A DNA stretch of 64,000 nt, from positions 51,556 to 115,555 of the IMG/VR virus record IMGVR_UViG_3300049460_000134, one strand, 5' to 3'. Shown here in pieces: positions 8,021 to 49,977 of this stretch. The notes beneath the pieces were generated by a model. That model ran no database searches. It was not told where the DNA came from and saw nothing but the letters and a program-made list of their open reading frames with translations. Within the stretch, counting starts at the first letter, position 1. Every line of letters begins with the position of its first letter. Source of the stretch: a virus. A program made the position numbers and the translations under genes.

Positions 8021-10357
8021 ATGGAAGTTTCGCAGCTTGCGCAGCTCGACACACACGCCGTCATCGGCGGTGAAGATCCTGAAGCGTTCGGCATGGCTGA
8101 TACTCCAGAATTCTATCAGATGCTCTCAGCCAGCATCTATCGCGACAAGATCCGCGCAGTCGTGCGCGAGACGATCTGCAATGGCTGGGACGCGCATATC
8201 ATGGGCGGCTGCACCGACAAGGCAGTGCAAGTTACACTCACGGACGAGGAGCTTGTCATCAAGGACTTCGGTCCCGGCATTCCGCATGAGAAGATGCGGC
8301 CGATCTATTGCATCTACGGCGTTTCGACGAAGGTGAAGGATGAGAGCCAGACCGGCGGTTTCGGTCTCGGATCCAAGTCGCCATTCGCCGTCACCGATCA
8401 CTTCTCCGTCGTCTCGTGCTTTGCAGGCACACGCTCTGTCTATGCCATCTCTCGCGGTGGCAAAGCTACAAGCGGCAAGCCTGACATGCGCCGCATGGTC
8501 GCCGTGCCGACAACCGAAAGCGGCGTCACTGTCACGGTCCCGATCAAAAAGGAAGAGCGCGAGAGCTTTGCCAAGCACATTCGCGCCGTTGCAAAGCAGG
8601 GCGGCATGCTGGTGACGCTGAACGGCGAACTTCTGGAGCGCTTCGATTACGAGGAGGCGCGCAAGACTGAGTTCTGCGTCGTCGCGCCTCACTGGATGCA
8701 CGAAAGCCGCATCTATACGCTCTACGGCACCGTCCTCTATCCGGTGATGACGACCGACCCTGATATCTCCAAGCTGACACGCGATATCGAAGGCCTGATC
8801 GGCTACGGCTCGACGCTGGTTATCGTTGCCCCGCCGAATTCAGTCGAAGTCACGCCGTCGCGCGAGTCCCTCTCTTTTACGGATGGAACCACCGACACCA
8901 TCAAGCGGCTGCTCGACAAGGCATGCACGCGCATCAGCAAGGCAATTCCGGCAGCTACTAAGCTCGCTGTCGATGCACGCGTTGCAAAGAACGGCCGCCT
9001 AGCGCTCGCGAGCAAGATCCACGCGATCAGAGAGGTGCCTGAGAAGGTTCTCTCCAGTGCGCTCGCGATCGCCGAGCACGCCGTCCGCTCGAATCCTGAT
9101 AACCATATCCAGTATGATCGACAGCGGCGCCTATGCCTTCAGGCAGCGCAGCGACTGTTCAAAGATGATCGCCGCACCTTCCGCCGTGCGCTGAAGCGTG
9201 GTTACAACGCTGGCGAGGACAGCTTCAAGGCGTCGAGCAAGCCGCTCATCCGCATTGCCTCGAAGATGGGCATGCTGAAGGATGCGCACCTCTTCAACAT
9301 CTACGCCTATCGCTACCAGACGATCGGCTCCAAGACCAATCCGCTGAAGGAGCACGACACCGGGGTCGTTAGGCCTGTCCTTTGCGTGGCGCGCAATCTG
9401 CGCGATCTGCGACCGACGATGAGCGGTGCAAGCAGCGGTTTTCCGCCGGACAAGGATAGCTTCATCGCCGGCCTGGTCATGCGCCAGTGGACTGCGGAGC
9501 GCCTGAAGCAGCTTCGCGCGCTCGCCGAGCACTACAAGCTGAAGCTGGTCATCTTCGATTACGAAGCAGCGAAGAAGCCGAAGAAAGCACCGGTCAAGCG
9601 CGAAAAGATCGTCGACAAGTATTTCGCCCTTGGTGATTTCAGGGGAACGACTTGCGAAACGGCAAACCTCGAAAATCCGAAATACTTCCTGATGAGCTTT
9701 GCGCGCGAAGGCATGCGTTCGCCCTTTCAGGATGAAGGCCATCAATACCACCACCTTCTTGCGAAGCGCTATCCGGAGACGGCTGTCATTTCGTCCAAGA
9801 CAGACGCTGAGAAGCTGATGAAGCGCGGCGCAGTCAATCTGACCGGTGTCATTGCCAAGCGCATTGCGGAGCTCGCTGGGGTCCGTGAGGTCCAATACGC
9901 TTACGCGATCCGCGAAGGCCTGATGTGCAACGGCAATTATCACCACTACCCATCAGACCTGGCCATTTCGTTCGCCAAGCTCGACATGCGGATTGCAAAG
10001 CGCCTGTTCCCCGACAAGGCGACGCCTGGCGCTCTCGCTGAAGAAGGCTTGCTTCTGAACGACGTGATGAACTCGCTGCGGCTCGATTATCAGGACCGCA
10101 ACTGCGGCGGCAATGAAGCCAAGCTCAAGATCTGGACGTCTGCGAGAGAGACCTACAAGGCCATGACCACGTCATATGCCGACCAGAAATTCAGTTACTT
10201 GAGCGTCCTGGCAGGCATCAGAGTTACCGGCGGCATCAAACGCAAGATCGATGATCTCCACGACATCATCGTCTTTTTGCAGGACCGCGAGAGTAAGTCA
10301 AAATTGACTGAATCCCTTTTGAACCCAATTGCTAACGCCCAGAAGGAGGCAGCATGA
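8021..10357 (+). CDS. rIIA: rIIA-like protein (GHKL ATPase N-terminus)
   Basis: RETICNGWDA, DFGPGI and GGFGLGSKSPFA motifs; adjacent to rIIB. Confidence 0.88.
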   Translation: MEVSQLAQLDTHAVIGGEDPEAFGMADTPEFYQMLSASIYRDKIRAVVRETICNGWDAHIMGGCTDKAVQVTLTDEELVIKDFGPGIPHEKMRPIYCIYGVSTKVKDESQTGGFGLGSKSPFAVTDHFSVVSCFAGTRSVYAISRGGKATSGKPDMRRMVAVPTTESGVTVTVPIKKEERESFAKHIRAVAKQGGMLVTLNGELLERFDYEEARKTEFCVVAPHWMHESRIYTLYGTVLYPVMTTDPDISKLTRDIEGLIGYGSTLVIVAPPNSVEVTPSRESLSFTDGTTDTIKRLLDKACTRISKAIPAATKLAVDARVAKNGRLALASKIHAIREVPEKVLSSALAIAEHAVRSNPDNHIQYDRQRRLCLQAAQRLFKDDRRTFRRALKRGYNAGEDSFKASSKPLIRIASKMGMLKDAHLFNIYAYRYQTIGSKTNPLKEHDTGVVRPVLCVARNLRDLRPTMSGASSGFPPDKDSFIAGLVMRQWTAERLKQLRALAEHYKLKLVIFDYEAAKKPKKAPVKREKIVDKYFALGDFRGTTCETANLENPKYFLMSFAREGMRSPFQDEGHQYHHLLAKRYPETAVISSKTDAEKLMKRGAVNLTGVIAKRIAELAGVREVQYAYAIREGLMCNGNYHHYPSDLAISFAKLDMRIAKRLFPDKATPGALAEEGLLLNDVMNSLRLDYQDRNCGGNEAKLKIWTSARETYKAMTTSYADQKFSYLSVLAGIRVTGGIKRKIDDLHDIIVFLQDRESKSKLTESLLNPIANAQKEAA

Positions 10358-23900: not shown

Positions 23901-23926
23901 AAGGGCGCTTGACGGCGCCCTTTTTC
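23901..23926 (+). terminator. Intrinsic terminator
   Basis: AAGGGCGC-TTGACG-GCGCCCTTTTT. Confidence 0.7.
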
Positions 23927-24069
23927 GGCTCTAGTTGTGTCAGTAAATCCTGACTGACTCCTGACATATCCACCCGAACTCCTGTCTCAGACATGCGATA
24001 ACAAATCATCGAAAGAGACGACGCATGTCCGCATGCGTCAGTAAACACTGACTGACAAGAGGATTTGGC

Positions 24070-24579
24070 ATGACTGAACACATCATAAACGAGCAGCGCA
24101 TCGACGTTCCGGATGACATGACGGTCGTCCTCGAGACAGGCTTCGCCGGAGCATTCGATCACATTCGCTACCGCGGCGTCGAGATCTGCACCTACGAGCA
24201 GGATGACGACCAGGCTTACACCAGCGGATTTGCTGTCTGCATCAATGGCGACCCCGAGCATGTGAATGAGCTCGCCGAAGCGCGCACCATGATCGACGCC
24301 TACCACGCGGAAATGCTCCTGGCGTTCACTTGCAAAGACTGCGCGGTCAACACCTCGGCGATCGGCGAATATTACATGGTGACTGACGACCTCTGGGCGA
24401 AAGCAGGCATGGCGCCTGACGGCGGCATGCTGTGCATCGGCTGCCTGGAGACGCGGATCGGCCGGCAGCTCATTGCAAAGGACTTTCCGGACTATCCGGT
24501 CAACGCGATCGGCTTCTCTTCCAAATCGGAACGCCTCATGTCGCGCATCACATGCGCCGAAGTCCTCGAGGCTGCGTGA
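24070..24579 (+). CDS. Hypothetical protein with CxxC...CxxC Zn domain
   Basis: CKDC...YMV..DLW...LCIGCLETRIGR. Confidence 0.75.
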   Translation: MTEHIINEQRIDVPDDMTVVLETGFAGAFDHIRYRGVEICTYEQDDDQAYTSGFAVCINGDPEHVNELAEARTMIDAYHAEMLLAFTCKDCAVNTSAIGEYYMVTDDLWAKAGMAPDGGMLCIGCLETRIGRQLIAKDFPDYPVNAIGFSSKSERLMSRITCAEVLEAA

Positions 24580-32605: not shown

Positions 32606-32739
32606 GGGAGTCCAAGGTAGGCGTCACATGTTACGAATCCAAGAGCCATATTAGAGTCGCCTAAAAGAATCTTCCGAACATAGCCGCGAGCTTCCCAGCA
32701 GCGAGCATGCGATAACAAATCATCAAAGACGAAGAGAGA

Positions 32740-35101: not shown

Positions 35102-35174
35102 CCTCAAATGACCGAAATCGAATTTTTCCCTCGAATGTTAAACTCCCCAGAGCACAACCTGCTGACAACGGAAT

Positions 35175-35470
35175 CGCTATAGAAGCTCACACAATCGATC
35201 CGCTCACGTCTAACGATACAGACAGCGCTCTCTATAGCGGATGAAGCTCAGCAACGCTCTCAGCGTCAAACAGCACACAGGTCTCGTCGTATCTAAACGC
35301 TATAGAAACCAGTGCAGAAAACATTCACAGCAACACCGGCTAGAAACAGCTCAATCCATAGAGAGACAGCGACCAGCATAGAGAGCCAATAGACCTAGAG
35401 AGAGGCTATAGAGCACATAAGCGCATAGCGGGGAGAGAGCATAGAGAGGTCCGCGGTATAGAGAGGGAGC
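35175..35470. repeat. Cluster of short (C)TATAGA/ATAGAGAG motifs
   Basis: About ten imperfect copies in an ORF-poor tract; also at 34413, 34470, 35804 and 36867. Confidence 0.5.
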
Positions 35471-35813
35471 TATTGCAAAGAGTCGATGGTGGAAATGCGT
35501 CGGCGCCGATCCTGTCTCGCCAGCCCAATCCACGCCTCGCCTCACCCATCCTGTGCACAGCCGACTTAACCCTTTCGCAACCCGACGCGCGACGCGCTAC
35601 TGTCATTCTGTGACGAGCAGGTGCTCACACGCAGCGAATGATCTGGGGCTGGGGCATTGGATCATCACCTTAGAGGCGGTCTTCACAGGATCGCCTCTCT
35701 TTTTGACCTCCAGGAAAATAGGAACCACGCCAACTCGCCGTCGCAGACGCCAAACCGTAGGGTGCTCCTAATTGCGGACGTGCCTGATGAGCCGGACCTT
35801 AGCCTCTCTATAG

Positions 35814-35879
35814 CCGCGGCATGCCACCTTAAGCCGGAGTGATCCTAGGATGACCGAGGCGTGCCTTGGAAATCCTCGG
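35814..35879. repeat. 10-bp-phased CC/CCNNGG array
   Basis: CC at 35814, 35824, 35834, 35844, 35854, 35864 and 35874; five of these are CCNNGG. Confidence 0.75.
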
Positions 35880-35892
35880 CGAGACCTTCTTT

Positions 35893-35963
35893 CCGAGTCC
35901 GTGTTCTCACTAATATAATCTTCTTATCTACGTATTATCTATTAGTGAGAACATGGCTCCGGA
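35893..35963. repeat. Inverted-repeat element TTCTCACTAATA..AT-rich..TATTAGTGAGAA (copy 1)
   Basis: Near-identical element in the opposite orientation at 50221-50297. Confidence 0.75.
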
Positions 35964-36110
35964 TATGTCCGGAATGTGTCCGTGGCTCTCCATACGCCGG
36001 AACGAGCCTAAACGTGCCGTGAAAAGCCGATTTCTATCCTAAAATCAAAGACTTATGTTCTTCTCATCGAAAGCGAGCGCACTCGAAGCGCGTCACAGAG
36101 GAGAAAGAGC

Positions 36111-36791
36111 ATGCAGTCCACGTCCAACCAGGCACCGGCCACGTCCAAGAAGATAGAGGCCTACGACTTCAAGCAGGCGGCACAGAGCCATACATCTGAC
36201 GAGTTGGCGGCGTTTGCCTTGCGTGTCGAGCAGGCGTTCACCGCAAGAGCGCAGTTCGAGCTCGACCAGACGAGCAACGCCGACGAGCCGATCCAGAAGA
36301 AGCTCGCCACCGCACGCAAGTCCTTCTCTATGCCGGACACACTGCGCGGCATGATCGAACTCAACCTCGATCCGGAGTTCATCAACGGCACGCTCTCCAA
36401 AGACGGCAAAGGCAAGCGCCTGAACGTCTATGCCATCAAGAAGGCGCAGCAGATCGTGGACTTCATGCTCGGCAAGGACAAGCTGCCGGAGGTGCTGATC
36501 GCCTGCCTCAAGTCGATGGTGGCATTCAAGGCGGCCGGCGAGAAGTTCACGGCAGAGTTTTCCAAGGCTGCAGTCTCAGACAAGATCAGGCTCGCGCCAT
36601 CTGCCGGCCTTAAGCTCCTTGTCAGGCACAACGTCGATAAGGCTACCGCCTCGACGCAGGCAAGTAGTAATATGCGCATTCTGCAGGCTCTTGGTCTGGT
36701 GAAGAACGTAGGCAGTGCACGCTCCGGTGTGTATGAGCTGACGGATACAAAGCAGGCGGTAGCGCTTGTGGATCTTCTGAGGTCAGCCTAG
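36111..36791 (+). CDS. Hypothetical DNA-binding-like protein; paralog of 38916 and 15123 products
   Basis: GAGGAG SD; block-wise similarity to the 38916 product. Confidence 0.8.
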   Translation: MQSTSNQAPATSKKIEAYDFKQAAQSHTSDELAAFALRVEQAFTARAQFELDQTSNADEPIQKKLATARKSFSMPDTLRGMIELNLDPEFINGTLSKDGKGKRLNVYAIKKAQQIVDFMLGKDKLPEVLIACLKSMVAFKAAGEKFTAEFSKAAVSDKIRLAPSAGLKLLVRHNVDKATASTQASSNMRILQALGLVKNVGSARSGVYELTDTKQAVALVDLLRSA

Positions 36792-36824
36792 GCCTCGCCG
36801 GCTAGGCGAAACTGCAGAGGGGAA

Positions 36825-36860
36825 GAGGCGGTAGGCACCCAAACCTACCGCCTCGCTTTG
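36825..36860 (+). terminator. Intrinsic terminator
   Basis: GAGGCGGTAGG..CCTACCGCCTC followed by a T-rich run. Confidence 0.65.
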
Positions 36861-36985
36861 TTTTGGCTATAGAGAGACCAAGGATATCCGTGGCAGCGGC
36901 CATTAGGAACCGGTGGGGTCCAAGGGACCGGCCGCTAGAAACCACGCATGTCCGCTCCAGGTGTAGGGGAAGGATTGGGTTGATG

Positions 36986-37032
36986 CCGCGGCGATCCTAG
37001 GCGATCCGTGGCAGGCCGCGGCAAACCTTGGC
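36986..37032. repeat. 10-bp-phased CCNNGGC array
   Basis: CCGCGG, CCTAGG, CCGTGG, CCGCGG and CCTTGG at 36986, 36996, 37006, 37016 and 37026. Confidence 0.8.
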
Positions 37033-37152
37033 TGAGGCATCGCCTCCCCTCTCCTATCCGTGCCTCGCCGGAGTGATCCAGAGATTGCCGATTGCATGCC
37101 TCTCTCTATCATCGTATCAGTAATTATTGACTGACAAACACAAGAGAGACAC

Positions 37153-37485
37153 ATGAAGATCATTACTGAAGCCGAACTGACGAGCGCTATCGAAGACTGC
37201 CTGTGCGAAGTGTTTGAGCTCGTCGTAGGCCAGCGCGCATATCTCGAAGTGCTCACGAATGAGACGGACTACGTCGGCACGCTCATCGAGTATGAGACGG
37301 ACCTTGGCTTTCACAACGCGACAAACGTCTTCGATCTGGACCTAGAGACGCGCAAGTATGCCTTTGAGCGCGCAGTGACTGCCGGCGATGCGAAACAGTC
37401 GTTCTTTGCATATGACAGCCTATCTGATGCGAAAGCACACGCCACGGCGCTGCTATTCGCAAAGCTCGACGGCTACGAAGAATAG
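37153..37485 (+). CDS. Hypothetical acidic early protein
   Basis: Own promoter and operator; GAGAG SD. Confidence 0.7.
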   Translation: MKIITEAELTSAIEDCLCEVFELVVGQRAYLEVLTNETDYVGTLIEYETDLGFHNATNVFDLDLETRKYAFERAVTAGDAKQSFFAYDSLSDAKAHATALLFAKLDGYEE

Positions 37486-37727
37486 GCCATAGCGAGCGTC
37501 GCTGACCGCGGCGCTTTCATTTGGCTTGTCGAGTGCCGTGGCGATCCTTGGAACCCGCCGAGGGGCAGTCCACGCCACACCAGGCCGGTCCAGTCCTCAT
37601 CCGGCCAGGCCAGGTCCACGGCACGTCAGGCCGCCTCACCCTGCAAGACCCCTGCAATGCCGATTTGATCGCCTTTAGCGACTTCGCTAAAACAATAATT
37701 AGCGAAACACGAAAGAGAGACACGCGC

Positions 37728-38051
37728 ATGACCAACGAACTCGTAAAGACCGCCGCCATTGCTCTGCTCAATCATCTGTCCACGATGAACGATGATGCCT
37801 TTGAGCGCGTCGATACCGACTACATCGACTATTCGCCTGACGCGCACTTCACAGTCGCCTTGTTCGACGCGATCGAGCCAGCCAAAGACCGCAACTACTT
37901 CGACATGATTACCGAGTTCACCTACGAGCTCGCCAGTGTCACCAAGAGCGATGACGATCGTGCCGACGTCGATCGCTTCTGCACCAAGCTCTTCTCCGCC
38001 CTCCTCCGTTTCGAAATGAGCGAGAACATCCAGAGTCTCGACGCCTCATAG
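37728..38051 (+). CDS. Hypothetical acidic early protein
   Basis: GAGAG SD, ATG at 37728. Confidence 0.7.
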   Translation: MTNELVKTAAIALLNHLSTMNDDAFERVDTDYIDYSPDAHFTVALFDAIEPAKDRNYFDMITEFTYELASVTKSDDDRADVDRFCTKLFSALLRFEMSENIQSLDAS

Positions 38052-38127
38052 CGCCGACAACATCCATTTGAACGCCTTTAGCGAATTCGCTAAATATTTA
38101 AGTGTCAACAACGTGAGAGCGAGACAC

Positions 38128-38298
38128 ATGCAAACGATCATTCCAGCGCCGACCGTCAGATACCACATAAAAGAAATGACGCCGCGCCAGTCGAACTTCG
38201 CAAGCCAAGCCCTGTCGCTTGCCAAGGAGACTGCCGCCTTCATTGCCTTTATCGTCTTCGTCTGTGCTGTCATCGCCGTGTGCGTGATAATCCACTAA
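38128..38298 (+). CDS. Small protein with C-terminal TM helix
   Basis: ATG at 38128 after a promoter. Confidence 0.55.
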   Translation: MQTIIPAPTVRYHIKEMTPRQSNFASQALSLAKETAAFIAFIVFVCAVIAVCVIIH

Positions 38299-38304
38299 GT
38301 CGAG

Positions 38305-38346
38305 AGCCAGGTCCGGACACCGCCATGTCACCGGACCTGGCTTTTT
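38305..38346 (+). terminator. Intrinsic terminator
   Basis: AGCCAGGTCCGG...CCGGACCTGGCTTTTT. Confidence 0.7.
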
Positions 38347-38467
38347 CATTGCCTGAAACCATGGCATGCCACGGTTGCCAAAATCAGGAACCGAGGCTAT
38401 TCGTGCCAAGGGGATCCAGTCCGGCGAGTCCCGCTGGCGATGCCTGTCAATATATGAGCGCTCGCTA

Positions 38468-38527
38468 CATCGCTCGACGCTTCATTAGTCGATGCTACAT
38501 TACGCGCTGCTGCATTAGTCGACGCTT
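38468..38527. repeat. Four imperfect 15-bp tandem repeats (CATTAGTCGACGCTT-like)
   Basis: Units at 38468, 38483, 38498 and 38513. Confidence 0.7.
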
Positions 38528-38621
38528 CGAAAGCGCACGCTCTCACACCTCTTGCTCAATTAGCGCATGCTCACAGACACGCGCTCGCGAGCCTGTCCGT
38601 TTCCGCACCAAAAACAAAGAA

Positions 38622-38648
38622 AAGCACACGCTTGTTTAGCGTGTGCTT
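38622..38648 (-). terminator. Terminator of the minus-strand island operon
   Basis: AAGCACACGCT-TGTTT-AGCGTGTGCTT; U-rich tract on the minus strand. Confidence 0.7.
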
Positions 38649-38666
38649 GTATCTGCTTTTGCTGTT

Positions 38667-38846
38667 TTATTCAGCGCTCATGCGCTCGCGTTCTGTGGTG
38701 CGCACATAGTCGCGCATGTCGAAATACTCGCTTTCATAGTCGCGCTCTAACAGCGCAACGTCTGAGGTGTTAGCAAACGACATGCTAAGCGCTTGTCTGA
38801 AGTTGTCGCGCTCGCGACGCTCTTTCTTTGTCATGTGTATGCGCAT
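38667..38846 (-). CDS. 59-aa protein lacking Gly/Pro/Trp (not in ORF track)
   Basis: MRIHMTKKERRERDNFRQALSMSFANTSDVALLERDYESEYFDMRDYVRTTERERMSAE; GAGAG SD. Confidence 0.65.
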   Translation of the reverse strand: MRIHMTKKERRERDNFRQALSMSFANTSDVALLERDYESEYFDMRDYVRTTERERMSAE

Positions 38847-38915
38847 TATCTAAATCTCTCGTTGGTGTTTCGTGTGAGTGTCAGTCAATTAAGACTGACA
38901 CTCGTTTCTGTGGTG

Positions 38916-39500
38916 TTACGCGCTCAGCTTCGCTTCAATGAGCGCAAAGATTGCGTTGTTGTTGACTGCATATTCAGTCTTGTTTTTCTGCTCAATCAGA
39001 TTGAGCGCATGCAGTGCGCGCATGCTCATGTTTGCATGTCGTGCATAGTTCGCGAATTGCGTGCGACGCTGATAGATGAGCGCTTTTTTGGTGTCGTCGA
39101 TTTTCGCGCTCGCGTTCAAGCTGTCTTCAATGTCGCGCACAGTGAAGTTTACATTAGCGTTCTTGAAGTTAACAAGCGTGCGCAACACTTCTTCGAGATT
39201 GCTCTTGAGGTGTTTTACATCGTCGCGCGTTGCGAACTTGAGCAAGCTATCAACACTGTTGATTGCTTTCATGCACATATACTTATTTTCGACGCGCTTG
39301 TCGTGCGAAAACACCTCAGAAACGTTGCTCTTCTTGAGCAACGCAGCAACGCTTTTCTGCGATACTGTGAGCGTTACATCAGTGATGAACTTGAGCGATG
39401 CAGCGCATGCACCATTTTTCAGTTCATCGTCATAGCGCTTGTTCAAATCTGCAGCGTATGCGTTGATCTTGACTTCGTTGTTCTTCGTTACTTCAGTCAT
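38916..39500 (-). CDS. Paralog of the 36111 product, depleted of GG/CC codons
   Basis: 194 aa with 1 Gly, 0 Pro and 0 Trp; flanked by operators at 38879 and 39584. Confidence 0.8.
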   Translation of the reverse strand: MTEVTKNNEVKINAYAADLNKRYDDELKNGACAASLKFITDVTLTVSQKSVAALLKKSNVSEVFSHDKRVENKYMCMKAINSVDSLLKFATRDDVKHLKSNLEEVLRTLVNFKNANVNFTVRDIEDSLNASAKIDDTKKALIYQRRTQFANYARHANMSMRALHALNLIEQKNKTEYAVNNNAIFALIEAKLSA

Positions 39501-40057
39501 TTGCTTGTCTTTCTTTCGTTGTGCTGTTTAATCAGCGTTGTTAACATGTTCACTAAACACTTATTCGCAAAAACAGTCAAGCGTATCAGTCAAAAATAAC
39601 TGACATTTTGCGAAAATAATTCGATGCACTCTATTTGACACATAGACGCGCACTGACGCGCGTTGTGTGTCGTGCGCTGTCATCTATCGTTTTTGTGCGT
39701 CGCTGCATCCCTCGTGCAACGTCGTGACAATGCGCGCGTGATTGATTCTCTAGTGTCGCGTGACAGTGTTGCTAGCGTGAGTTTTCGAGGTGAAAGCGAA
39801 GTCTTAGAAAAAAGTGCGTCGCTCGAAAGGGATGCCTCCTGCTGCGCCGACACTTCCCGGCTCGGACTACCTGTCCTCATTCCCGGCCTGGACGGACAGC
39901 ATAGGTGCGGTATGCCGAGGCCCCTCCCCTGCTCTCCCCTCTACCAGACCGCCCAGATTCCCGGATCCCGGACTACCTATCCTTATGTGTCAGTAACTAT
40001 TGACTGACATTCGACGCGCGGCTACAGTCGCCTCATCATCAACGCAGGATCTCTCCT

Positions 40058-40987
40058 ATGGAAATCACTAACTCCGGCAACCTCCAGGTCAGAACGCACG
40101 AGAACGGCGTTCAGGAATTCCTCGAGGCCCCGCTCAGCATGTCGCTGTTCAACGACTTTGAGGACCGGCTGCTGACACGCCACACGGACGGCCGCTACGT
40201 CTTCAGGGACGATCGCGGCAACGTGCTGATCTACATGAGCACTGGCCTCTCCGCGCTCGACGGCTTCCAGCGCGTCGGTCTGGAGCTCAAGAGCTACTAC
40301 GACGTGGAGCGCAACCTCTACCAGACCGCCTTCCCTCCCCTCTCCCTGACGATGAGCGACGTTCTCGTGCCGAACAGGCTTCTCCAGGAGCTGACATTCG
40401 TTCCGACCGAGGAGCCGTTCGTCTACAAGCGCACTGCTGGTCCGTTTGGCTTCCCTGTGCTCGATCTCTTCGGTCAGCTTGCCGACAGCATTCCCCTCGA
40501 GGACGCCGTAACAGCAGCCCCTGGCTATCTCAGCGGCGAGCCGACCGAACAGGAGCCTGTCACCGCCGGCTCGCTCTCGAATGCGGACGGCAGCTTCAAG
40601 ATTGACCTGGACGAAGGCGCGATCGAAATTAGCGAAAGCCAGAATTCGCTAACTCGCGTTTCCGTTCACTATGACGATCGCCGCGACCTGGTCTTCGTCG
40701 GCTATGACGTCTTGGATCACATCGACGACGACGGCGGCGCCCTGGCGCTCGAGATCGATGGCAAGGCGATCGTGCCGGCCTTTGGCTGGACGCACTACAC
40801 CTTCGAGGCGCTCGACAATCCGCTTGTGGACGAAGAGGCGCCGCTTGCTTCTGTCGCGAAAGAGCGAATTAGCGATCCGATCTGCGAAGGACCGGTCTTT
40901 CCGGATGGCAGCTTCACCAAGGATCAGATCGAAGAGGCTTTCCGCTTCCTCGTCGCCGACAAGCTCACCGATCGCAAGGCAGCCTGA
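40058..40987 (+). CDS. Hypothetical acidic protein
   Basis: 309-aa ORF after an operator. Confidence 0.7.
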   Translation: MEITNSGNLQVRTHENGVQEFLEAPLSMSLFNDFEDRLLTRHTDGRYVFRDDRGNVLIYMSTGLSALDGFQRVGLELKSYYDVERNLYQTAFPPLSLTMSDVLVPNRLLQELTFVPTEEPFVYKRTAGPFGFPVLDLFGQLADSIPLEDAVTAAPGYLSGEPTEQEPVTAGSLSNADGSFKIDLDEGAIEISESQNSLTRVSVHYDDRRDLVFVGYDVLDHIDDDGGALALEIDGKAIVPAFGWTHYTFEALDNPLVDEEAPLASVAKERISDPICEGPVFPDGSFTKDQIEEAFRFLVADKLTDRKAA

Positions 40988-41110
40988 GCATGGACGCTGT
41001 CTCGCTCGCCGGCGATACGACTGACCTGGTGGTGAAGTCCATTGACTTCACCTTGGTGCTCATCGTCGTGATCGCCTTCATGCTCCACGATACCAAGAAT
41101 AGGATCTGAA

Positions 41111-41395
41111 ATGACGGACACCGTCAAAGGACTGCCCATAAAGGGCTACAAGAACGAGCAGCCGATCCACCTGGTCGAGCTGGTCAACGAGAACAAGGTT
41201 CTCGAGGAAATGGTTCTGCGCCAGATCGACCGGCACGTCGCACTCGGCGCCGAGGTCAATGGTCGTGACGTGCAGATGGCTCGTGGTCTGATCGAGGATG
41301 CGTTCATGCGCCTCAACCGCGGCGTATTCCAGCCGCAACGTCTCGAAGGCGAGCTCGGCGGGGCTGTCCTTGCTGATATGCTGGGAGCTGCCTGA
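41111..41395 (+). CDS. Acb2-like cyclic-nucleotide sponge (anti-CBASS family)
   Basis: IKGY...N..K..E...R....A...IEDAFM..NR.VFQP pattern of the Acb2 family. Confidence 0.65.
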   Translation: MTDTVKGLPIKGYKNEQPIHLVELVNENKVLEEMVLRQIDRHVALGAEVNGRDVQMARGLIEDAFMRLNRGVFQPQRLEGELGGAVLADMLGAA

Positions 41396-41553
41396 TGAGC
41401 GTCGTCGCCCTACTCTACGTCTGGCTGGCGCTCTGGCTCCTGATCGGCATCTTTGTCGCCGGTCTGGTGCTGCTCTTCCTGCGGTTCATCTGGCGAACCT
41501 ATCGCTTTATCCAGAAAGAGCGATTTCGCGATTTAGCGAATGCACGATAAAAG

Positions 41554-41576
41554 AAAGGGCGCTTAGAGCGCCCTTT
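41554..41576. terminator. Bidirectional terminator
   Basis: AAAGGGCGC-TTAGA-GCGCCCTTT between convergent genes. Confidence 0.7.
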
Positions 41577-41577
41577 G

Positions 41578-41859
41578 TCATTTCTGCGTCTTCTTCCAGG
41601 CCGCGAAGCACTCCTCGAGGAGTTCCTTCATCGACATGCCTCTCGCGGTCGCGGTCATCTTGAACTCCCGGCTGAATGCGCCGTCCACCTTGAAGTTCAG
41701 ATCTTTGTAGATCTTCTTGACCTTCATGTTGTCGGCCACGAATGGCGTCTCGGCGGTATCGGCGATCGTCGCCAGCAGCTTGAACTCGTCGGCCTTCTTG
41801 CTTGGCGGCTTGCCTACCGGTGCCTTGGTAGCTGCCGTTTCAACTGGTGCCTTTGTCAT
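41578..41859 (-). CDS. Ribbon-helix-helix partition protein (ParG-like)
   Basis: LNFKVDGAFSREFKMTATARGMSMKELL; coupled to parA. Confidence 0.7.
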   Translation of the reverse strand: MTKAPVETAATKAPVGKPPSKKADEFKLLATIADTAETPFVADNMKVKKIYKDLNFKVDGAFSREFKMTATARGMSMKELLEECFAAWKKTQK

Positions 41860-42500
41860 GCTGCTTCCTCCGCGGCCTGGTTGATCCTGGTGACGATCTC
41901 GCTGGCGAGAGCCTCAGCGCGCTCGTTGAGCGACGGATACTTGGTCTCGGAGATCGCAAAGCCGGTGTTTTGAGCGGACTGATACCCTGCCCTGGTGCCT
42001 AGATCGGTATCGGCGACGTCGAAGCCCTGCTTCTTGATGAGCGCTGCTGCCTCGCGAACCGCGGCCTCACTGTCGGCCGTCTTGTTGAGGACGAAGAAGA
42101 TCTTGTCTCGGCTGACGCCTTTGGCCGCGAGCTCCTGGGCAAAGCCAAGCTGCGGCTTCAGATCGTCCACGGTCACGCCGGTCGGCACGATGACTTGGTC
42201 GGCGACCAGGGCAGCCTCGAGCGAGGTCTGAACAGAGTCCGGCGCGCCATCGACGATCAGGCAGTCGGCCGTCTCATTCTTCAGCTTCTTGACCGAGTTG
42301 AACGGCTGCGCCTCGATCTCCGGCTGGATCACACCGCGGATGCGTGCCGCCACCCAATCAACCGAAGTGAGCTGGTTGGTGTTGAAGTCGCAGATCTTCA
42401 CCGACCACTCAGCCGATGCGTAGGTTCTAGCCATCAGCCGAGCGAGCGTGGACTTGCCGACGCCGCCTTTCTGGGACAGGCACGCGATTATCAGGGTCAT
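41856..42500 (-). CDS. parA: ParA family Walker-type partition ATPase (type Ib)
   Basis: SQKGGVGKST deviant Walker A; IVDGAP; no N-terminal HTH. Confidence 0.92.
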   Translation of the reverse strand: MTLIIACLSQKGGVGKSTLARLMARTYASAEWSVKICDFNTNQLTSVDWVAARIRGVIQPEIEAQPFNSVKKLKNETADCLIVDGAPDSVQTSLEAALVADQVIVPTGVTVDDLKPQLGFAQELAAKGVSRDKIFFVLNKTADSEAAVREAAALIKKQGFDVADTDLGTRAGYQSAQNTGFAISETKYPSLNERAEALASEIVTRINQAAEEAA

Positions 42501-43179: not shown

Positions 43180-43550
43180 AGCGGCTCAAACTCCGGCATA
43201 TCGAAGATTTCCTCGTAGATCTCCGGTGTCTGGGCGTCGAGCGCCTCCCAGGTCAACCGCATGGCGTCCTGGTTACACATCGTCTCGGTGCAGCAGGTGG
43301 CGATATCGACCTTGTGCTTCTCAGCCACGAAGCCGGCGAGGTCATTGCCACGCATCATCAGATCGAACCGATCGACCTTGGCGTTGCGCTTGGTTCGCGC
43401 AATCGCGAAATCGCTATTTACCGAATTCGTTGGATCGCTAGGTCCAAGCCCATAATCGGAGTCTCGAAATATGCAGTGCGTCGGCGTGCTCCCATGGGGC
43501 TCCCGATCGAGGAACCCCTTGAGCTGGCCTTTAAACCAGACTTGCATCAT
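43176..43550 (-). CDS. Hypothetical protein
   Basis: Operon coupling. Confidence 0.6.
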   Translation of the reverse strand: MMQVWFKGQLKGFLDREPHGSTPTHCIFRDSDYGLGPSDPTNSVNSDFAIARTKRNAKVDRFDLMMRGNDLAGFVAEKHKVDIATCCTETMCNQDAMRLTWEALDAQTPEIYEEIFDMPEFEPL

Positions 43551-46077: not shown

Positions 46078-46836
46078 ATGACAGAAGTGGAGCCCCTGAA
46101 GGGCTATCCGAAATACGGGGAAGCGGATCCATCCACGCTGCAGCCGAATCCCTGGAATACAAACATCATGACGCCGGAGAACGAGCAGAAGCTTGAGGCG
46201 TCTATGAAGCGCTTCGGCATCTTCCGTCCGGTTGTCGTTCGCGAAATCGTTAATTCGCGAAATGGCGACAAAACTTTGCAGATCTTGGGTGGTCAACACC
46301 GCAACGAGATCGCGCAGCGGCAGGGGAGGGGAGTGGTCCCGATCGTCAATCTGGGGCCAATCGATGAGGAGAAGGCCAAGGAGATCGGTATCGCCGACAA
46401 CGCACGATACGGCGTCGATGATGCCATCGCGTTCGGCGAACTCATCAAAAGCCTCGCTCATGCCGACCAACTCGCTGACTTCCTTCCCTACACCCAAAAT
46501 GAATTCGACAGTTTCGTCACGTCGTCTGAAATAGACTTGGATTCATTGGATTTCGAAGAAAACTTCGAAAAAAGCGAGGAGAACGACACTTCTCCGCAGC
46601 CTGAGACTGAGAAGCCTGCCAAGACGCATACGATCCTGCGTTTCAAGTGCTCCAACCGCGACGCCGAAGACATCACCGCCAGAATCGAGGCTGTGAAACA
46701 GGCGCAGGGCTTCATCGGCTCCGACGATCTCACCAATGCCGGCGACGCGCTGGCTCACCTCCTTCTGCATGCCGTTAGTGGTCAGTCAAATTTGACTGAT
46801 GATCTCGAAGACATCGACGCCGGAGACGACGAATGA
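46078..46836 (+). CDS. ParB/Srx-N domain protein 1
   Basis: PNPWNTN, PVVVR, ILGGQHR and ADN motifs. Confidence 0.85.
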   Translation: MTEVEPLKGYPKYGEADPSTLQPNPWNTNIMTPENEQKLEASMKRFGIFRPVVVREIVNSRNGDKTLQILGGQHRNEIAQRQGRGVVPIVNLGPIDEEKAKEIGIADNARYGVDDAIAFGELIKSLAHADQLADFLPYTQNEFDSFVTSSEIDLDSLDFEENFEKSEENDTSPQPETEKPAKTHTILRFKCSNRDAEDITARIEAVKQAQGFIGSDDLTNAGDALAHLLLHAVSGQSNLTDDLEDIDAGDDE

Positions 46837-47015
46837 ACGTCCGGCCGAAGTTCGACGACTGCACAGGCTGCAAATACTTCCTGAAGAACCGCCGCAACCC
46901 GATCTGCGGCGAGTGTGACGCCGGCGAGTTCTTCGAAACCAAAACCAGAGTCCGGGAGAAGAGCCCGGATGAACTCATGAAGCTTTACGGGGAACTTTCC
47001 GACCATGACGAATAG
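46833..47015 (+). CDS. Small Cys-rich protein
   Basis: CTGC...CGEC. Confidence 0.6.
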   Translation: MNVRPKFDDCTGCKYFLKNRRNPICGECDAGEFFETKTRVREKSPDELMKLYGELSDHDE

Positions 47016-47676
47016 CCTAGCCGTCCAGATCCTCGATCTGGCTTCTCTCATCCCACACGCCAAGAACGCCAAGAAGCATTCCGACGAGCAGGTTGCCAAT
47101 ATCGCAGCCCTCATCAAGCGCCTTGGCTGGACGAGCCCGATCGTTGTCGACAAGGATCTGGTCATCATCGCCGGTCACGGCCGCCGCCTGGCCGCCCTGC
47201 ACCTCGGGATGACGAAGGTTCCGGTCATCGTTCGTGACGATCTCAGCAAGGAAGAGGCTGAAGCGCTTCGCCTGGCTGACAACCGCGTCGCATCGACCGA
47301 CTACGACTTGGCGCTGGAGCAGGAAGCTCTGCAGGCGCTCGCCGAATTCAACCTCGATCTCGACTTCTCGGTCATGGGCTACACCGAGCGCGAGCTCGAT
47401 TTCATGACCAACGACCTCGGCGCGATGGATGAGAGCCTCTTCGTCGAGGATATCTCCGAAGCCGTCCAGGGTCAGAAGGAAGACAACGAGAAGAAGGTCG
47501 AGGAGGTCGATGATATCGCAGCTCCGGTCGCCGACGCTCTTGGCTTCAAGCGCGTGACGATCGCCGAAAGCCGCGTCCTGCGCGATCTCATGGGTCGAAT
47601 GGAGCAGGCAACCGGCCTGCAGGGCGCTCCGGCGCTCATCGGCTTCATCCAGTCGAGCCTGGATCGCGCTGCATGA
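47005..47676 (+). CDS. ParB/Srx-N domain protein 2
   Basis: NAKKH, PIVVD, IIAGHGRRLAA and LADNR motifs. Confidence 0.88.
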   Translation: MTNSLAVQILDLASLIPHAKNAKKHSDEQVANIAALIKRLGWTSPIVVDKDLVIIAGHGRRLAALHLGMTKVPVIVRDDLSKEEAEALRLADNRVASTDYDLALEQEALQALAEFNLDLDFSVMGYTERELDFMTNDLGAMDESLFVEDISEAVQGQKEDNEKKVEEVDDIAAPVADALGFKRVTIAESRVLRDLMGRMEQATGLQGAPALIGFIQSSLDRAA

Positions 47677-48086
47677 CCGATGTGATCGACATCAAGACTC
47701 GTCGCCCCTGGGCTTTGGCACGCGCTGAAGCCCAGAAGGCCAGGCGCAAGGCCAAGCGCCAGGAGAAGAAGGAAGCCAAGGAAGGCATCGAGGAGCACAA
47801 GGCAGCCATGCTCGAGGTGCTCGATGGCGTGCGCAAACTCGTCGAGGCAGGCCGTCTGGAAGGGCTGCTGCTGATCGCACGCGAGCCGAAGACCAAGCAC
47901 TTCTTCACCGAAGTCGTCCTTGATGACCGCATCATCACGAACAATGACCTCCACTCGTTCGTCGGCTGCCTGGAAACCCTGAAGATCGAGCTGGCTGACG
48001 GCGCGGCAATGGCGCCGGCGCTGATGCTCGATGGCTCAACCATTGATCCGGAAATGGAGCCGCCGGAATACGAGGAATTCGAATGA
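47673..48086 (+). CDS. Hypothetical protein
   Basis: ATGA coupling. Confidence 0.7.
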   Translation: MTDVIDIKTRRPWALARAEAQKARRKAKRQEKKEAKEGIEEHKAAMLEVLDGVRKLVEAGRLEGLLLIAREPKTKHFFTEVVLDDRIITNNDLHSFVGCLETLKIELADGAAMAPALMLDGSTIDPEMEPPEYEEFE

Positions 48087-48727
48087 CCGTCTATACGATC
48101 AACAAATCCTTCACCTCATCGGTGGAGCGCACGGATCGCGTGCTTGAAATGGCTGAGAGCTTCGGCCTGGGACTGACCGACAAAGAGTTCACGATCTACA
48201 AGGATCTGGAGCTCAACGTTCCGCAAGGCTCGATCGTCTACATCAACGGCCAATCTGGCTCCGGCAAGTCGCTGCTCCTGCGCGAGCTGTCGGCCGCCAT
48301 GCGCGCCGGTGGTCTCAAGGTCGCCGACCTGAACGAGATTGAGCTGCCCGAAAAGCCGGTGATCGAGATTGTCGGCAAATCCACGAGCGAAGCGCTGCAC
48401 CTCCTGGCGCTCGCCGGTATCTCTGACGCCTGGATCTATATCCGCAAGCCGTCGGAGCTCTCTGACGGGCAGCGCTACCGCCTGAAGCTCGCAGTCCTCC
48501 TTGAGCAAGACGCCGATGTATGGGTTGCCGACGAGTTCGGCGCCGTTCTCGATCGCGTCTGCGCCAAGGTGATTTCTTTCAATCTCCAGAAGGTCGCTCG
48601 CCAGCACGGCAAAACATTCATGGTTGCCACCACGCACACCGATCTCGTCGATGAACTTGGTCCGGATCTGTCGATCTACAAGGAATTCAAGGAGCGCGTG
48701 CTGGTCAAAGAGAAGGCCGCGGCATGA
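48083..48727 (+). CDS. Soluble ABC-type ATPase (no permease)
   Basis: GQSGSGKS, LSDGQ, VADEF and TTH motifs. Confidence 0.9.
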   Translation: MTVYTINKSFTSSVERTDRVLEMAESFGLGLTDKEFTIYKDLELNVPQGSIVYINGQSGSGKSLLLRELSAAMRAGGLKVADLNEIELPEKPVIEIVGKSTSEALHLLALAGISDAWIYIRKPSELSDGQRYRLKLAVLLEQDADVWVADEFGAVLDRVCAKVISFNLQKVARQHGKTFMVATTHTDLVDELGPDLSIYKEFKERVLVKEKAAA

Positions 48728-49014
48728 ATTACGGTCAGGCACTCGAATATCTGAAACGCGGCGGCACAGCCAGGCGCAAAGCCTGGCGCAGCGGTTTCGT
48801 CTACCTGGAGCTCGGCTCACGCGATCAGTCCAAGCTTTTCGGCCGCAGTCGGATCGAGGCTGTCCTCGATGCCGACCTCTTCGAGAAGGGCGCGAAGGGA
48901 ACAACCACGCGCCTCCCGAACCTGAATTTGAAGAATGCCGACGGGACGACCATGACTGGCTGGCAGGCCTCTCAGGTCGATACCCTGGCTGATGATTGGG
49001 AGCTGATGGAGTGA
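48724..49014 (+). CDS. DUF2829 / Tad2-like protein
   Basis: MNYGQALEYLKRG..ARRKAW...GWQASQVDTLADDW. Confidence 0.8.
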   Translation: MNYGQALEYLKRGGTARRKAWRSGFVYLELGSRDQSKLFGRSRIEAVLDADLFEKGAKGTTTRLPNLNLKNADGTTMTGWQASQVDTLADDWELME

Positions 49015-49110
49015 TGGCGAAGTCGCTAATTCTATCTTTCGCTATTTCGCTACTGGTGAGCACTTGCAGCGCGACAGCACCAGTCTTCGCAAAACTCGAC
49101 GGAGCGCGCT

Positions 49111-49977
49111 GTGAGCGAATCTGAAGCGATTGTGACGTATAACAAGAACGCACGAGGGGTCTTTGCGCTCGCGAACGAAATGTTTGTTGAGCGAGGGGCG
49201 CGTTCGGATTGGGAATTGCTCCACGATCTCCATTACAAGGCAGAAGGTCTGCCGATTGGACCGCAGTTCTGGAAGCTGCATCTTCGAGGCGAAACCGTCG
49301 GCGTCCTGGTCATCGGCCAGCCGAAAGGCATGCTGAAGGAGCGCCATCGTGTGTTCCCGAACATGGCACCTGGCGCCAACGAGACGAAGCTGACCAACAC
49401 CAACCGGTTCCGGCACATCAACCAGAACTTCCGGGTGATCTCGCGCTTCGTGATCGACACCAGGTTCCGCGGTATCGGCGCCGGCTACCGGATGATGAAT
49501 CTGGTCAGCCGCATGGATGGGCATCGCTTCATCGAGATCCAGTCCTCGATGTCGAAGTTCAACATCTTCGGCCAGAAGGCAGGCTTCAAGTTCGTCCGAC
49601 CGATGAACGCCAACAAGTTCGAGAAGGGCATGAAGTTCTTCCGCTCGCACTTTCAGGCATCACCCCAGGACTTCGAGGCGATCGTCAACGAGATCGAGAT
49701 GTCGGCGAGCCGCGACAAGCTGTTTGCCGAGTGCAAGATCTTCTATCAGCGCCATTCGGCTCTGGAGAACACTGGTGCAGCTCGCGATCGTGCCGACGGC
49801 CGCGTTGCCTCGATGTCGATCCGCGATGTGGTGAAGGGCATTCAGCAGATGAGCCTCGCAAGCCCGATGTATGGCATCTGGGAAGCGCCTGATCTTGGCC
49901 GCGAGGTTCCAGCAGTCATGCCTCTGACGGCGTTTGACTGCCAGAAGCCGACTGAGCCGTTGCGGTGGAAGCCGTGA
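49111..49977 (+). CDS. Mom-like GNAT-fold acyltransferase
   Basis: LHY; ISRFVIDTRFRGIGAG acyl-CoA motif; SSMSKFN. Confidence 0.75.
   Translation: MSESEAIVTYNKNARGVFALANEMFVERGARSDWELLHDLHYKAEGLPIGPQFWKLHLRGETVGVLVIGQPKGMLKERHRVFPNMAPGANETKLTNTNRFRHINQNFRVISRFVIDTRFRGIGAGYRMMNLVSRMDGHRFIEIQSSMSKFNIFGQKAGFKFVRPMNANKFEKGMKFFRSHFQASPQDFEAIVNEIEMSASRDKLFAECKIFYQRHSALENTGAARDRADGRVASMSIRDVVKGIQQMSLASPMYGIWEAPDLGREVPAVMPLTAFDCQKPTEPLRWKP

Follow-up and report, generated by a model that had tools for sequence, protein, structure and literature searches.

A GG/CC-purged operon, most likely at the tip of a terminal repeat, in a phage-plasmid of the RHEph10 group

Our analysis of a 64,000-nucleotide stretch of viral DNA (IMG/VR record IMGVR_UViG_3300049460_000134; bases 51556-115555 of a single 115,555-bp contig, hereafter the window) revealed an island on the minus strand, at 38445-39828, from which the dinucleotide GG and its complement CC (GG/CC) have been almost completely removed by selection. 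The depletion is genuine, under strong selection and highly unusual, and the position and anatomy of the island are fairly clear: it holds a complete operon of two genes, encoding proteins of 194 and 59 residues, and its most likely site is the tip of a long direct terminal repeat. We consider it possible, if somewhat short of an even chance, that the island is the imprint of an undescribed GG/CC-reading chemistry or enzyme, either a packaging-coupled acyl mark on C or G or an early dinucleotide-specific nuclease, and that the operon is a "clean" cassette written in 17 amino acids.

Depletion of GG/CC and the selection behind it

The scarcity of GG/CC, first noticed in a manual count, was reproduced exactly on recounting. 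The island contains 16 such steps in 1384 bp (7 GG and 9 CC) where about 160 are expected from base composition, an observed-to-expected ratio (O/E) of 0.10 against a window median of 0.73. As the original prediction held, the island is not simply low in G+C, since CG (126) and GC (141) steps are enriched 1.6-1.9-fold. Ranked by length over the entire 115,555-bp genome, the top nine gaps without GG/CC (89-297 bp) all fall inside the island, the shortest of them (89 bp) being tied by one gap outside it, and no comparable hole exists for any of the other nine strand-symmetric dinucleotide classes. The boundaries are as sharp as first described, and the flanks are GG/CC-normal to GG/CC-rich, with 30 steps in 146 bp at 38299-38444 and 46 in 229 bp at 39829-40057.

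The residual words follow a pattern of their own. GGTG/CACC accounts for 11 of the 16, among them every one of the 9 that fall between 38605 and 39708, and all eleven follow an A or T (W-GGTG, W standing for A or T). In the strict core of the island (38609-39708), eight W-GGTG/CACC-W words are the sole GG/CC, and a ninth (38608) straddles the lower edge. GGTG/CACC is as dense in the island (0.0079 per bp) as it is on average in the window, so the word is exempt from the depletion rather than enriched. This exemption, claimed in general terms at the outset, holds for the query genome and for an 84%-identical relative (L009) but not for any other relative, whose islands lack GGTG; in this sub-lineage A or T precedes 21 of 21 GGTG words. 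The only conserved GG-containing word within the island is GAGGGAT (39707-39713, minus strand), kept in most relatives about 60-100 bp from an invariant 12-mer described below.

The depletion is selected, at the level of nucleotides rather than of proteins. With the protein sequence fixed and codons drawn according to genome codon usage (5000 resamplings), the 194-residue gene would be expected to contain 42.1±5.2 GG/CC steps (minimum 24) and contains 4, and the 59-residue gene has 2 where 14.4±2.9 are expected. The three non-coding parts of the island have 10 against about 68 expected, adjacent intergenic DNA being normal. Amino-acid composition, the ordinary cause considered beforehand, is ruled out by the fixed-protein resampling together with the purged non-coding parts. 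The 194-residue protein has one Gly and neither Pro nor Trp, and the 59-residue protein has none of the three; the other proteins of the phage contain 7.5% Gly, 4.3% Pro and 1.0% Trp. Of the point substitutions possible in the island, some 25-27% would introduce a GG/CC step. Moreover, the ban is symmetric between strands, blind to reading frame, and spans DNA upstream of the promoter and past the terminator, which together indicate that the reader of GG/CC acts on double-stranded DNA.

The trait extends well beyond the query. Orthologous loci in 12 relatives (RHEph10, RHph_Y2_11, N1_15, B1VFA, a Pararhizobium plasmid and seven viral contigs) show GG/CC-free runs of 549-1350 bp at the corresponding gene, in lineages where about half of the aligned nucleotides of the gene are not those of the query; the island protein of B1VFA is 26-27% identical to that of the query. 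A profile search of 1.84 billion representatives yielded 58 relatives of the 194-residue protein, and 45 of 64 family representatives (these 58 and earlier hits) are without Gly, Pro and Trp, most of the others having 1-5 such residues. Pseudomonas phage nickie has a single 1137-bp GG/CC-free run (103938-105073) and no further anomaly, and no homology was detected between its 184-residue island protein and the query family by BLASTP or hidden Markov model searches. Phages of Rhizobium, Pararhizobium and Pseudomonas syringae are thus included in the range of the trait. At the DNA level, the island has no plasmid match, and its sole Rhizobium-phage match measures 84 bp.

In Salmonella phage SSU5, the syntenic minus-strand pair (genes for 216 and 67 residues; L020-L022, 95.1-97.0 kb) forms a patch of 35-37% G+C in which the strict ban is absent, the longest GG/CC-free gap being 154 bp and the local O/E about 0.5, and the 216-residue protein has 10 Gly and 1 Pro. 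Gaps in the occurrence of CAGG and other 4-mers there are accounted for by low G+C. Judged from SSU5, the enteric branch has either a relaxed form of the trait or none. Because the trait is kept across alpha- and gammaproteobacterial hosts and the exempt word is lineage-specific, its distribution points to a reader intrinsic to the phage.

Anatomy of the island and its place in the genome

The minus-strand operon was recovered in full, with palindromes, both genes and terminator all where they had been described. A sigma-70-like promoter (39552-39580; -35 TTGACT, 17-nt spacer, -10 TTTAGT) was called by eye from the family alignment, a consensus scan not having picked it up; its position is constant across relatives, in which the -35 element reads TTGCAA. 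From the predicted start, a 5' leader of about 45 nt with a purine-rich ribosome-binding site devoid of GG leads into the 194-residue gene (38916-39500), which is followed by the gene for the highly charged 59-residue protein (38667-38846) and by an intrinsic terminator-like hairpin with a T run (38622-38648), all on the minus strand. Beyond the terminator, overlapping copies of a GCTACATTAGTCGAC-like repeat with a 15-bp period (38464-38523) are still GG/CC-free.

Two palindromes, one directly upstream of the -35 element (39583-39605) and one upstream of the 59-residue gene (38878-38900), had been named as operators of this unit. Both are present, and they belong to a genome-wide TCAGT-N8-ACTGA family with 16 copies in the window versus 0.12 expected (79, 6586, 7969, 12941, 18611, 23940, 24038, 33136, 37117, 38881, 39586, 39990, 44142, 46782, 54993 and 61401). 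Copies are found ahead of each island gene, of the two divergent units at the flanks and of many other operons; the palindrome usually contains TTGACT and is itself without GG/CC. It looks like a candidate genome-wide operator or promoter element. Separately, metagenome contigs of three runs depart from the window sequence precisely at palindrome 37117 (and also at 32724 and 35598), which suggests that related strains swap modules at such sites.

The 194-residue protein is a predicted winged-helix DNA-binding protein. Its AlphaFold model (predicted local distance difference test score, pLDDT, 91.2; predicted template modeling score, pTM, 0.86) comprises an N-terminal helical domain and a C-terminal winged helix, residues 99-194 of which match many domains of this fold, the best at Z 8.4 with a root-mean-square deviation of 3.2 Å over 80 residues (2qvo) and others, among them MarR, ArsR, MukF and ORC, at Z 7-8. 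Neither island protein has a family in Pfam, PHROGs, NCBIfam or the protein atlas. A remote paralogue of the 194-residue protein is encoded 2 kb from the island on the opposite strand, within the inferred terminal repeat: a 226-residue open reading frame (ORF) at 36111-36791 (plus strand), related by profile comparison alone (hhalign probability 92.6%, E 4.6e-7) and not picked up by BLASTP. Its Gly and Pro content is normal, so that the pair presents one fold in 17- and 20-letter alphabets, a natural experiment in reduced-alphabet protein design.

Where does the island lie in the packaged DNA? Its promoter-distal edge carries an invariant 12-mer, TCTAAGACTTCG (39797-39808, minus strand), which occurs in one copy per genome in all Rhizobium-phage relatives including B1VFA, whose GG/CC-free run begins at it. 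Just outside the island stands a conserved, GG/CC-rich non-coding block (39829-39985) with the motifs GTCCGTCC, AGGTAGTCC and GGCAGCAG..GGCATC, which is possibly a packaging or cleavage recognition region. An RNA element was considered for this block and rejected, as it has no conserved fold and its Rfam matches are sub-threshold chance matches only.

For two relatives, direct terminal repeats have been published as lengths only, 3605 bp in B1VFA (fixed termini, PhageTerm) and 3939 bp in V1VFA-S (PMC12509600). We aligned the two complete genomes and tested each 3605-bp segment of B1VFA for a length of 3939±1 bp in V1VFA-S. The 179 segments that fit, among 95,154, form one block, with starts at 39631-39809, ends at 43235-43413 and a predicted length of 3940 bp, and the end interval encloses the 12-mer (43245-43256). 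Relative to B1VFA, the island of V1VFA-S carries a 333-bp insertion with an extra 85-residue ORF (L023, record 23910-24167), which accounts for the 334-bp gap between the two published lengths. Given this single genomic fit of both lengths, with a boundary that brackets the 12-mer, the B1VFA island most likely makes up the terminal 0.85 kb of the repeat, right at the boundary, with its genes read inward; by homology of the 12-mer and the flanking block, the query island most likely occupies the repeat tip as well. The operon had been called first-expressed, and for a complete unit with a sigma-70-like promoter, likely situated at the repeat tip, being the first to enter and the first to be read is plausible. 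The B1VFA record is not opened at its repeat; for Nican01 (Nickievirus) a "DTR (long)", that is, a direct terminal repeat, has been published, and its record, opened at the terminase gene, gives no position. In run X2, k-mer depth is 16-19 over 35116-42396 and 11-12 on both sides, a weak hint of a repeat that we did not use as evidence.

The genome at large is, by its content and kinship, that of a phage-plasmid of the RHEph10 group. The contig, from rhizosphere metagenomes, has identical first and last 127 nt, indicating a circular assembly, and the genome encodes RIIA/RIIB, ribonucleotide reductase, helicase, terminase, portal and ParA. Its portal protein shares 73% identity with the counterpart in Rhizobium phage RHEph10 and about 50% with the counterparts in SSU5-like phage-plasmids and nickie; one relative is a 115.6-kb circular plasmid of Pararhizobium qamdonense, and the B1VFA/V1VFA-S branch has been described as phage-plasmid-like, with parA, parB and repC (PMC12509600). 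An iteron-like array of CTCTCTATAG-type repeats lies at 35240-35500 of the window and at 8520-8800 (L004) in B1VFA, in non-coding, GG/CC-poor DNA (O/E about 0.4) 3.7-4.4 kb from the 12-mer; in B1VFA this is just past the inferred inner boundary of the terminal repeat, and the array may function as an origin, in partitioning or as a stop signal. In a divergent early unit 1.3 kb from the island, a 94-residue ORF (41111-41395, plus strand) with an Acb2/Tad1 hairpin domain (Pfam E 6e-10) likely encodes a cyclic-nucleotide sponge of the anti-CBASS/anti-Thoeris type.

Candidate readers of GG/CC

What kind of factor would impose such a ban? We tentatively propose the following model, which we rate well below an even chance. 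The island would be the tip cassette of the long direct terminal repeat, a self-contained operon whose host-type promoter, some 230-260 bp inside the DNA end, directs transcription inward; it would probably enter the cell, and be read, ahead of all other phage DNA. Its winged-helix protein would probably act on the TCAGT-N8-ACTGA palindromes throughout the genome. Selection excludes GG/CC from the promoter, the leader, both genes, the spacer and the terminator; a factor of the phage lineage would act on GG/CC in double-stranded DNA elsewhere, and the cassette would have to escape it. Our preferred candidate for this factor is a module of the phage itself, encoded next to the terminase genes and made up of two ParB proteins, an ABC ATPase and a GNAT acyltransferase, which would mark GG/CC at packaging, so that the cassette alone stays ordinary DNA, readable at once by host RNA polymerase and regulators. 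The paralogue of normal composition would take over later. Of this model, the ban, its action on nucleotides, its conservation, the fold of the protein and the existence of the module are established here; we infer where the island sits (at the tip, from two relatives), that it enters first, what the regulator does and which factor is the reader.

The module (46078-49977, plus strand) lies directly upstream of the terminase genes and comprises, in order, two ParB_N proteins, a 137-residue ORF, an ABC ATPase, a 96-residue ORF and a GNAT-fold protein; Pfam matches cover the two ParB_N proteins and the ATPase (ABC_tran). The last protein, of 288 residues, adopts a predicted GNAT fold with Protein Data Bank matches that include the cytidine acetyltransferases TmcA and NAT10, which are ATP-dependent, and the DNA-modifying Mom of phage Mu. 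It is 60-89% identical over more than 100 relatives and far more conserved than the island proteins, and the Joint Genome Institute labels homologues "ABC-type ATPase with predicted acetyltransferase domain". On these grounds the module is a candidate GG/CC "writer". No DpdA, Que or methyltransferase gene is annotated in the relative Y2_11. The restriction of the W-GGTG exemption to the query and L009 would fit a drift in the specificity of an enzyme.

A layer of selection separate from the island ban is the avoidance of palindromes throughout the 115.5-kb genome, in which GTAC (155 expected), CAGCTG (45 expected) and CACGTG (11 expected) do not occur at all. Y2_11 has neither GTAC nor TGGCCA, and in nickie 24 of 44 testable 6-mer palindromes are purged.

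Several observations weigh against a packaging-coupled mark on a tip cassette. The tip position is taken from two relatives by a fit that is within 1 bp rather than exact, and metagenome contigs of the query pass the 12-mer unbroken, as circular, concatemeric or repeat-ended DNA would, and cannot show ends. SSU5 carries the module without a strict island. If GG/CC were protected by a mark, GG/CC-containing palindromes should be spared from restriction avoidance; in four genomes no significant difference was found, the purged fraction in nickie being 6 of 13 for these and 18 of 31 for the others (Fisher p = 0.52), and the Rhizobium phages have few TGGCCA and GGATCC sites. GG/CC sites therefore seem exposed to restriction at some stage. 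Finally, a mark that blocks host polymerase would leave the other early genes and the replication genes in need of another route of expression. Of the original prediction, that virion DNA is modified at GG/CC and the operon must stay unmodified for host RNA polymerase, there remain a real and selected depletion on double-stranded DNA and candidate marking enzymes beside the terminase, whereas a blanket protection of GG/CC does not agree with palindromes that are still purged.

An alternative, already raised along with the original prediction, that we judge unlikely when taken alone, though the phage's own mark and the avoidance of targets appear about equally likely, is that leading DNA must be free of sites at which it could be attacked. 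Upon two-step or transcription-driven entry, the tip cassette would be alone in the cytoplasm for a while, and so would lack GG/CC words recognized by a nuclease (of the host, brought by the phage or made by it) or used as a CC or GG protospacer-adjacent motif (PAM) by a CRISPR system; its products would then protect or admit the rest of the genome. Inward transcription from the repeat tip agrees with this, zero tolerance matches lethal cleavage, and these phages do depend on the genome-wide loss of sites such as GTAC and CAGCTG. Absence of GG/CC on both strands would also fit the PAMs of type I-F (CC) and type II-A (NGG) systems, but a PAM leaves the W-GGTG exemption and the breadth across Rhizobium and Pseudomonas unexplained. 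As for a nuclease, we know of none with a 2-bp GG/CC specificity, a host enzyme of this kind would need about a million sites of its own protected, the cassette encodes no nuclease, and the restriction palindromes GCGC, TCGA and GTCGAC are abundant in the island, CGCG also occurring freely. The situation in T5 and BF23, where defenses act only through sites in first-step-transfer DNA (see below), counts in favor of this reading; against it, the first-step-transfer DNA of T5 itself, which we scanned, is of normal composition and without a 2-4-mer ban. The query does have an A1-annotated homologue (genome 13501-15348, outside the window; 66% identity to the "A1 protein" of RHph_Y2_11), but this gene is distant from the island, and tblastn found no counterpart in B1VFA, nickie or SSU5; since B1VFA and nickie have islands, it is ruled out as the reader.

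Far less probable is a mechanical or structural need, by which the last-packaged and first-ejected kilobase would have to be free of GG/CC for packaging termination, docking at portal or tail, or ejection. The position at the tip would suit such a need, as would a ban that is strand-symmetric and includes non-coding DNA, but the length under the ban, 850-1350 bp, tracks the transcription unit and is not set by distance from the tip. In addition, the conserved GAGGGAT is tolerated within the outermost 60-100 bp, the repeat has its second copy at an internal position, and no known physical effect would be strong enough per site. Equally improbable is a ban at the level of RNA, in which the transcript and antisense read-through would avoid an endoribonuclease or an RNA-binding repressor, or translation would proceed free of Shine-Dalgarno sequences. 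A unit delimited by promoter and terminator, with purine-rich ribosome-binding sites that lack GG, is what one might then see; however, the RNA of one strand needs only one word removed, whereas both GG and CC are missing from both strands, and the ban covers 150-200 bp upstream of the promoter as well as DNA past the terminator.

Least probable of all is a mutational footprint, left by local hypermutation (for example by a CC-specific deaminase) with no selection against GG/CC as such. The residual CACC does resemble a disfavored deaminase context, but CG and GC are enriched instead of the expected products TC, CT and TT, the proteins are conserved with confident folds (pLDDT 91), the ban has been held throughout the divergence of the family, and its boundaries are sharp and coincide with a conserved motif. 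Protection by a "sink" for guanine oxidation was discarded because selection on each site would lack the necessary strength, UV damage because TT shows no depletion, and Z-DNA, xenogeneic silencing, Chi sites and tRNA-level causes because the ban also holds at codon junctions and in non-coding DNA.

Relation to known systems

In the literature, we found no description of a dinucleotide-free, Gly/Pro/Trp-free phage cassette, and a search on phage proteins without Gly, Pro and Trp returned nothing relevant; a complete and long-kept ban on one dinucleotide, at the cost of three amino acids to two proteins, thus has no published precedent that we could find. The ban is a very clear sequence signature of an unseen DNA-reading factor, and it offers testable handles: a precise word (GG/CC, from which one lineage exempts W-GGTG), a precise location (a likely tip marked by the 12-mer) and the genes of a candidate module. 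New here are the start of the island at an invariant 12-mer, its likely placement at the tip, and a predicted winged-helix product with a paralogue of normal composition.

The closest parallel in layout is the first-step-transfer (pre-early) DNA of T5 and BF23. Restriction-modification systems, CRISPR-Cas and Ssp restrict these phages only via sites in that DNA (PMC10644984; bioRxiv 10.1101/866236), and Davison proposed that the host-degrading nuclease of T5 spares it because sites are lacking there (bioRxiv 10.1101/866236). In T5, with no other targets open to these defenses, this DNA is under selection to be free of them. As inferred for the island, pre-early DNA lies in a long direct terminal repeat at the genome end; its genes are driven by host promoters and expressed ahead of the others, and one of them encodes a DNA-binding protein, A2 in T5 and a predicted winged helix here. 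First-step-transfer DNA in T5 fills 9.6 kb of a repeat 10 kb long, whereas the island takes up about 1 kb of some 3.6 kb, and the cassette has no homologues of A1, A2 or dmp, encoding the 194- and 59-residue proteins only. Membership in the T5 type fails on this predicted gene content. Should a nuclease or defense system be the reader, the T5 rule that first-entering DNA alone is vulnerable would gain a further phage family, and the result could be relevant to the way in which these phages leave their leading DNA unharmed.

The leading end of T7 provides a second parallel. There, host promoters a few hundred base pairs from the entering end point inward and the anti-restriction gene 0.3 comes first, so that the first product conditions the fate of the rest, with no ban on any word. 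The query likewise has an inward host-type promoter near its inferred DNA end, but its first product is a predicted winged-helix DNA-binding protein rather than a DNA mimic. With restriction-site avoidance the island shares the removal of short DNA words by selection; unlike classic avoidance, which acts on 4-6-bp palindromes genome-wide, it concerns a 2-bp non-palindromic step in a single transcription unit and has cost three amino acids.

Phage self-modification, as by Mom of phage Mu or in the 7-deazaguanine phages with DpdA, offers the last comparison: a phage-encoded writer of short context would explain why the banned word is intrinsic to the phage and drifts between lineages. The ABC ATPase and GNAT fold of the query resemble a predicted ABC ATPase-GNAT DNA-acylation module (COG2401), whose substrate is itself only predicted, and the predicted structure of the GNAT-fold protein resembles Mom, TmcA and NAT10. 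If the phage's own mark is indeed what the island escapes, this would reveal the function of a widespread ParB-ABC-GNAT module.

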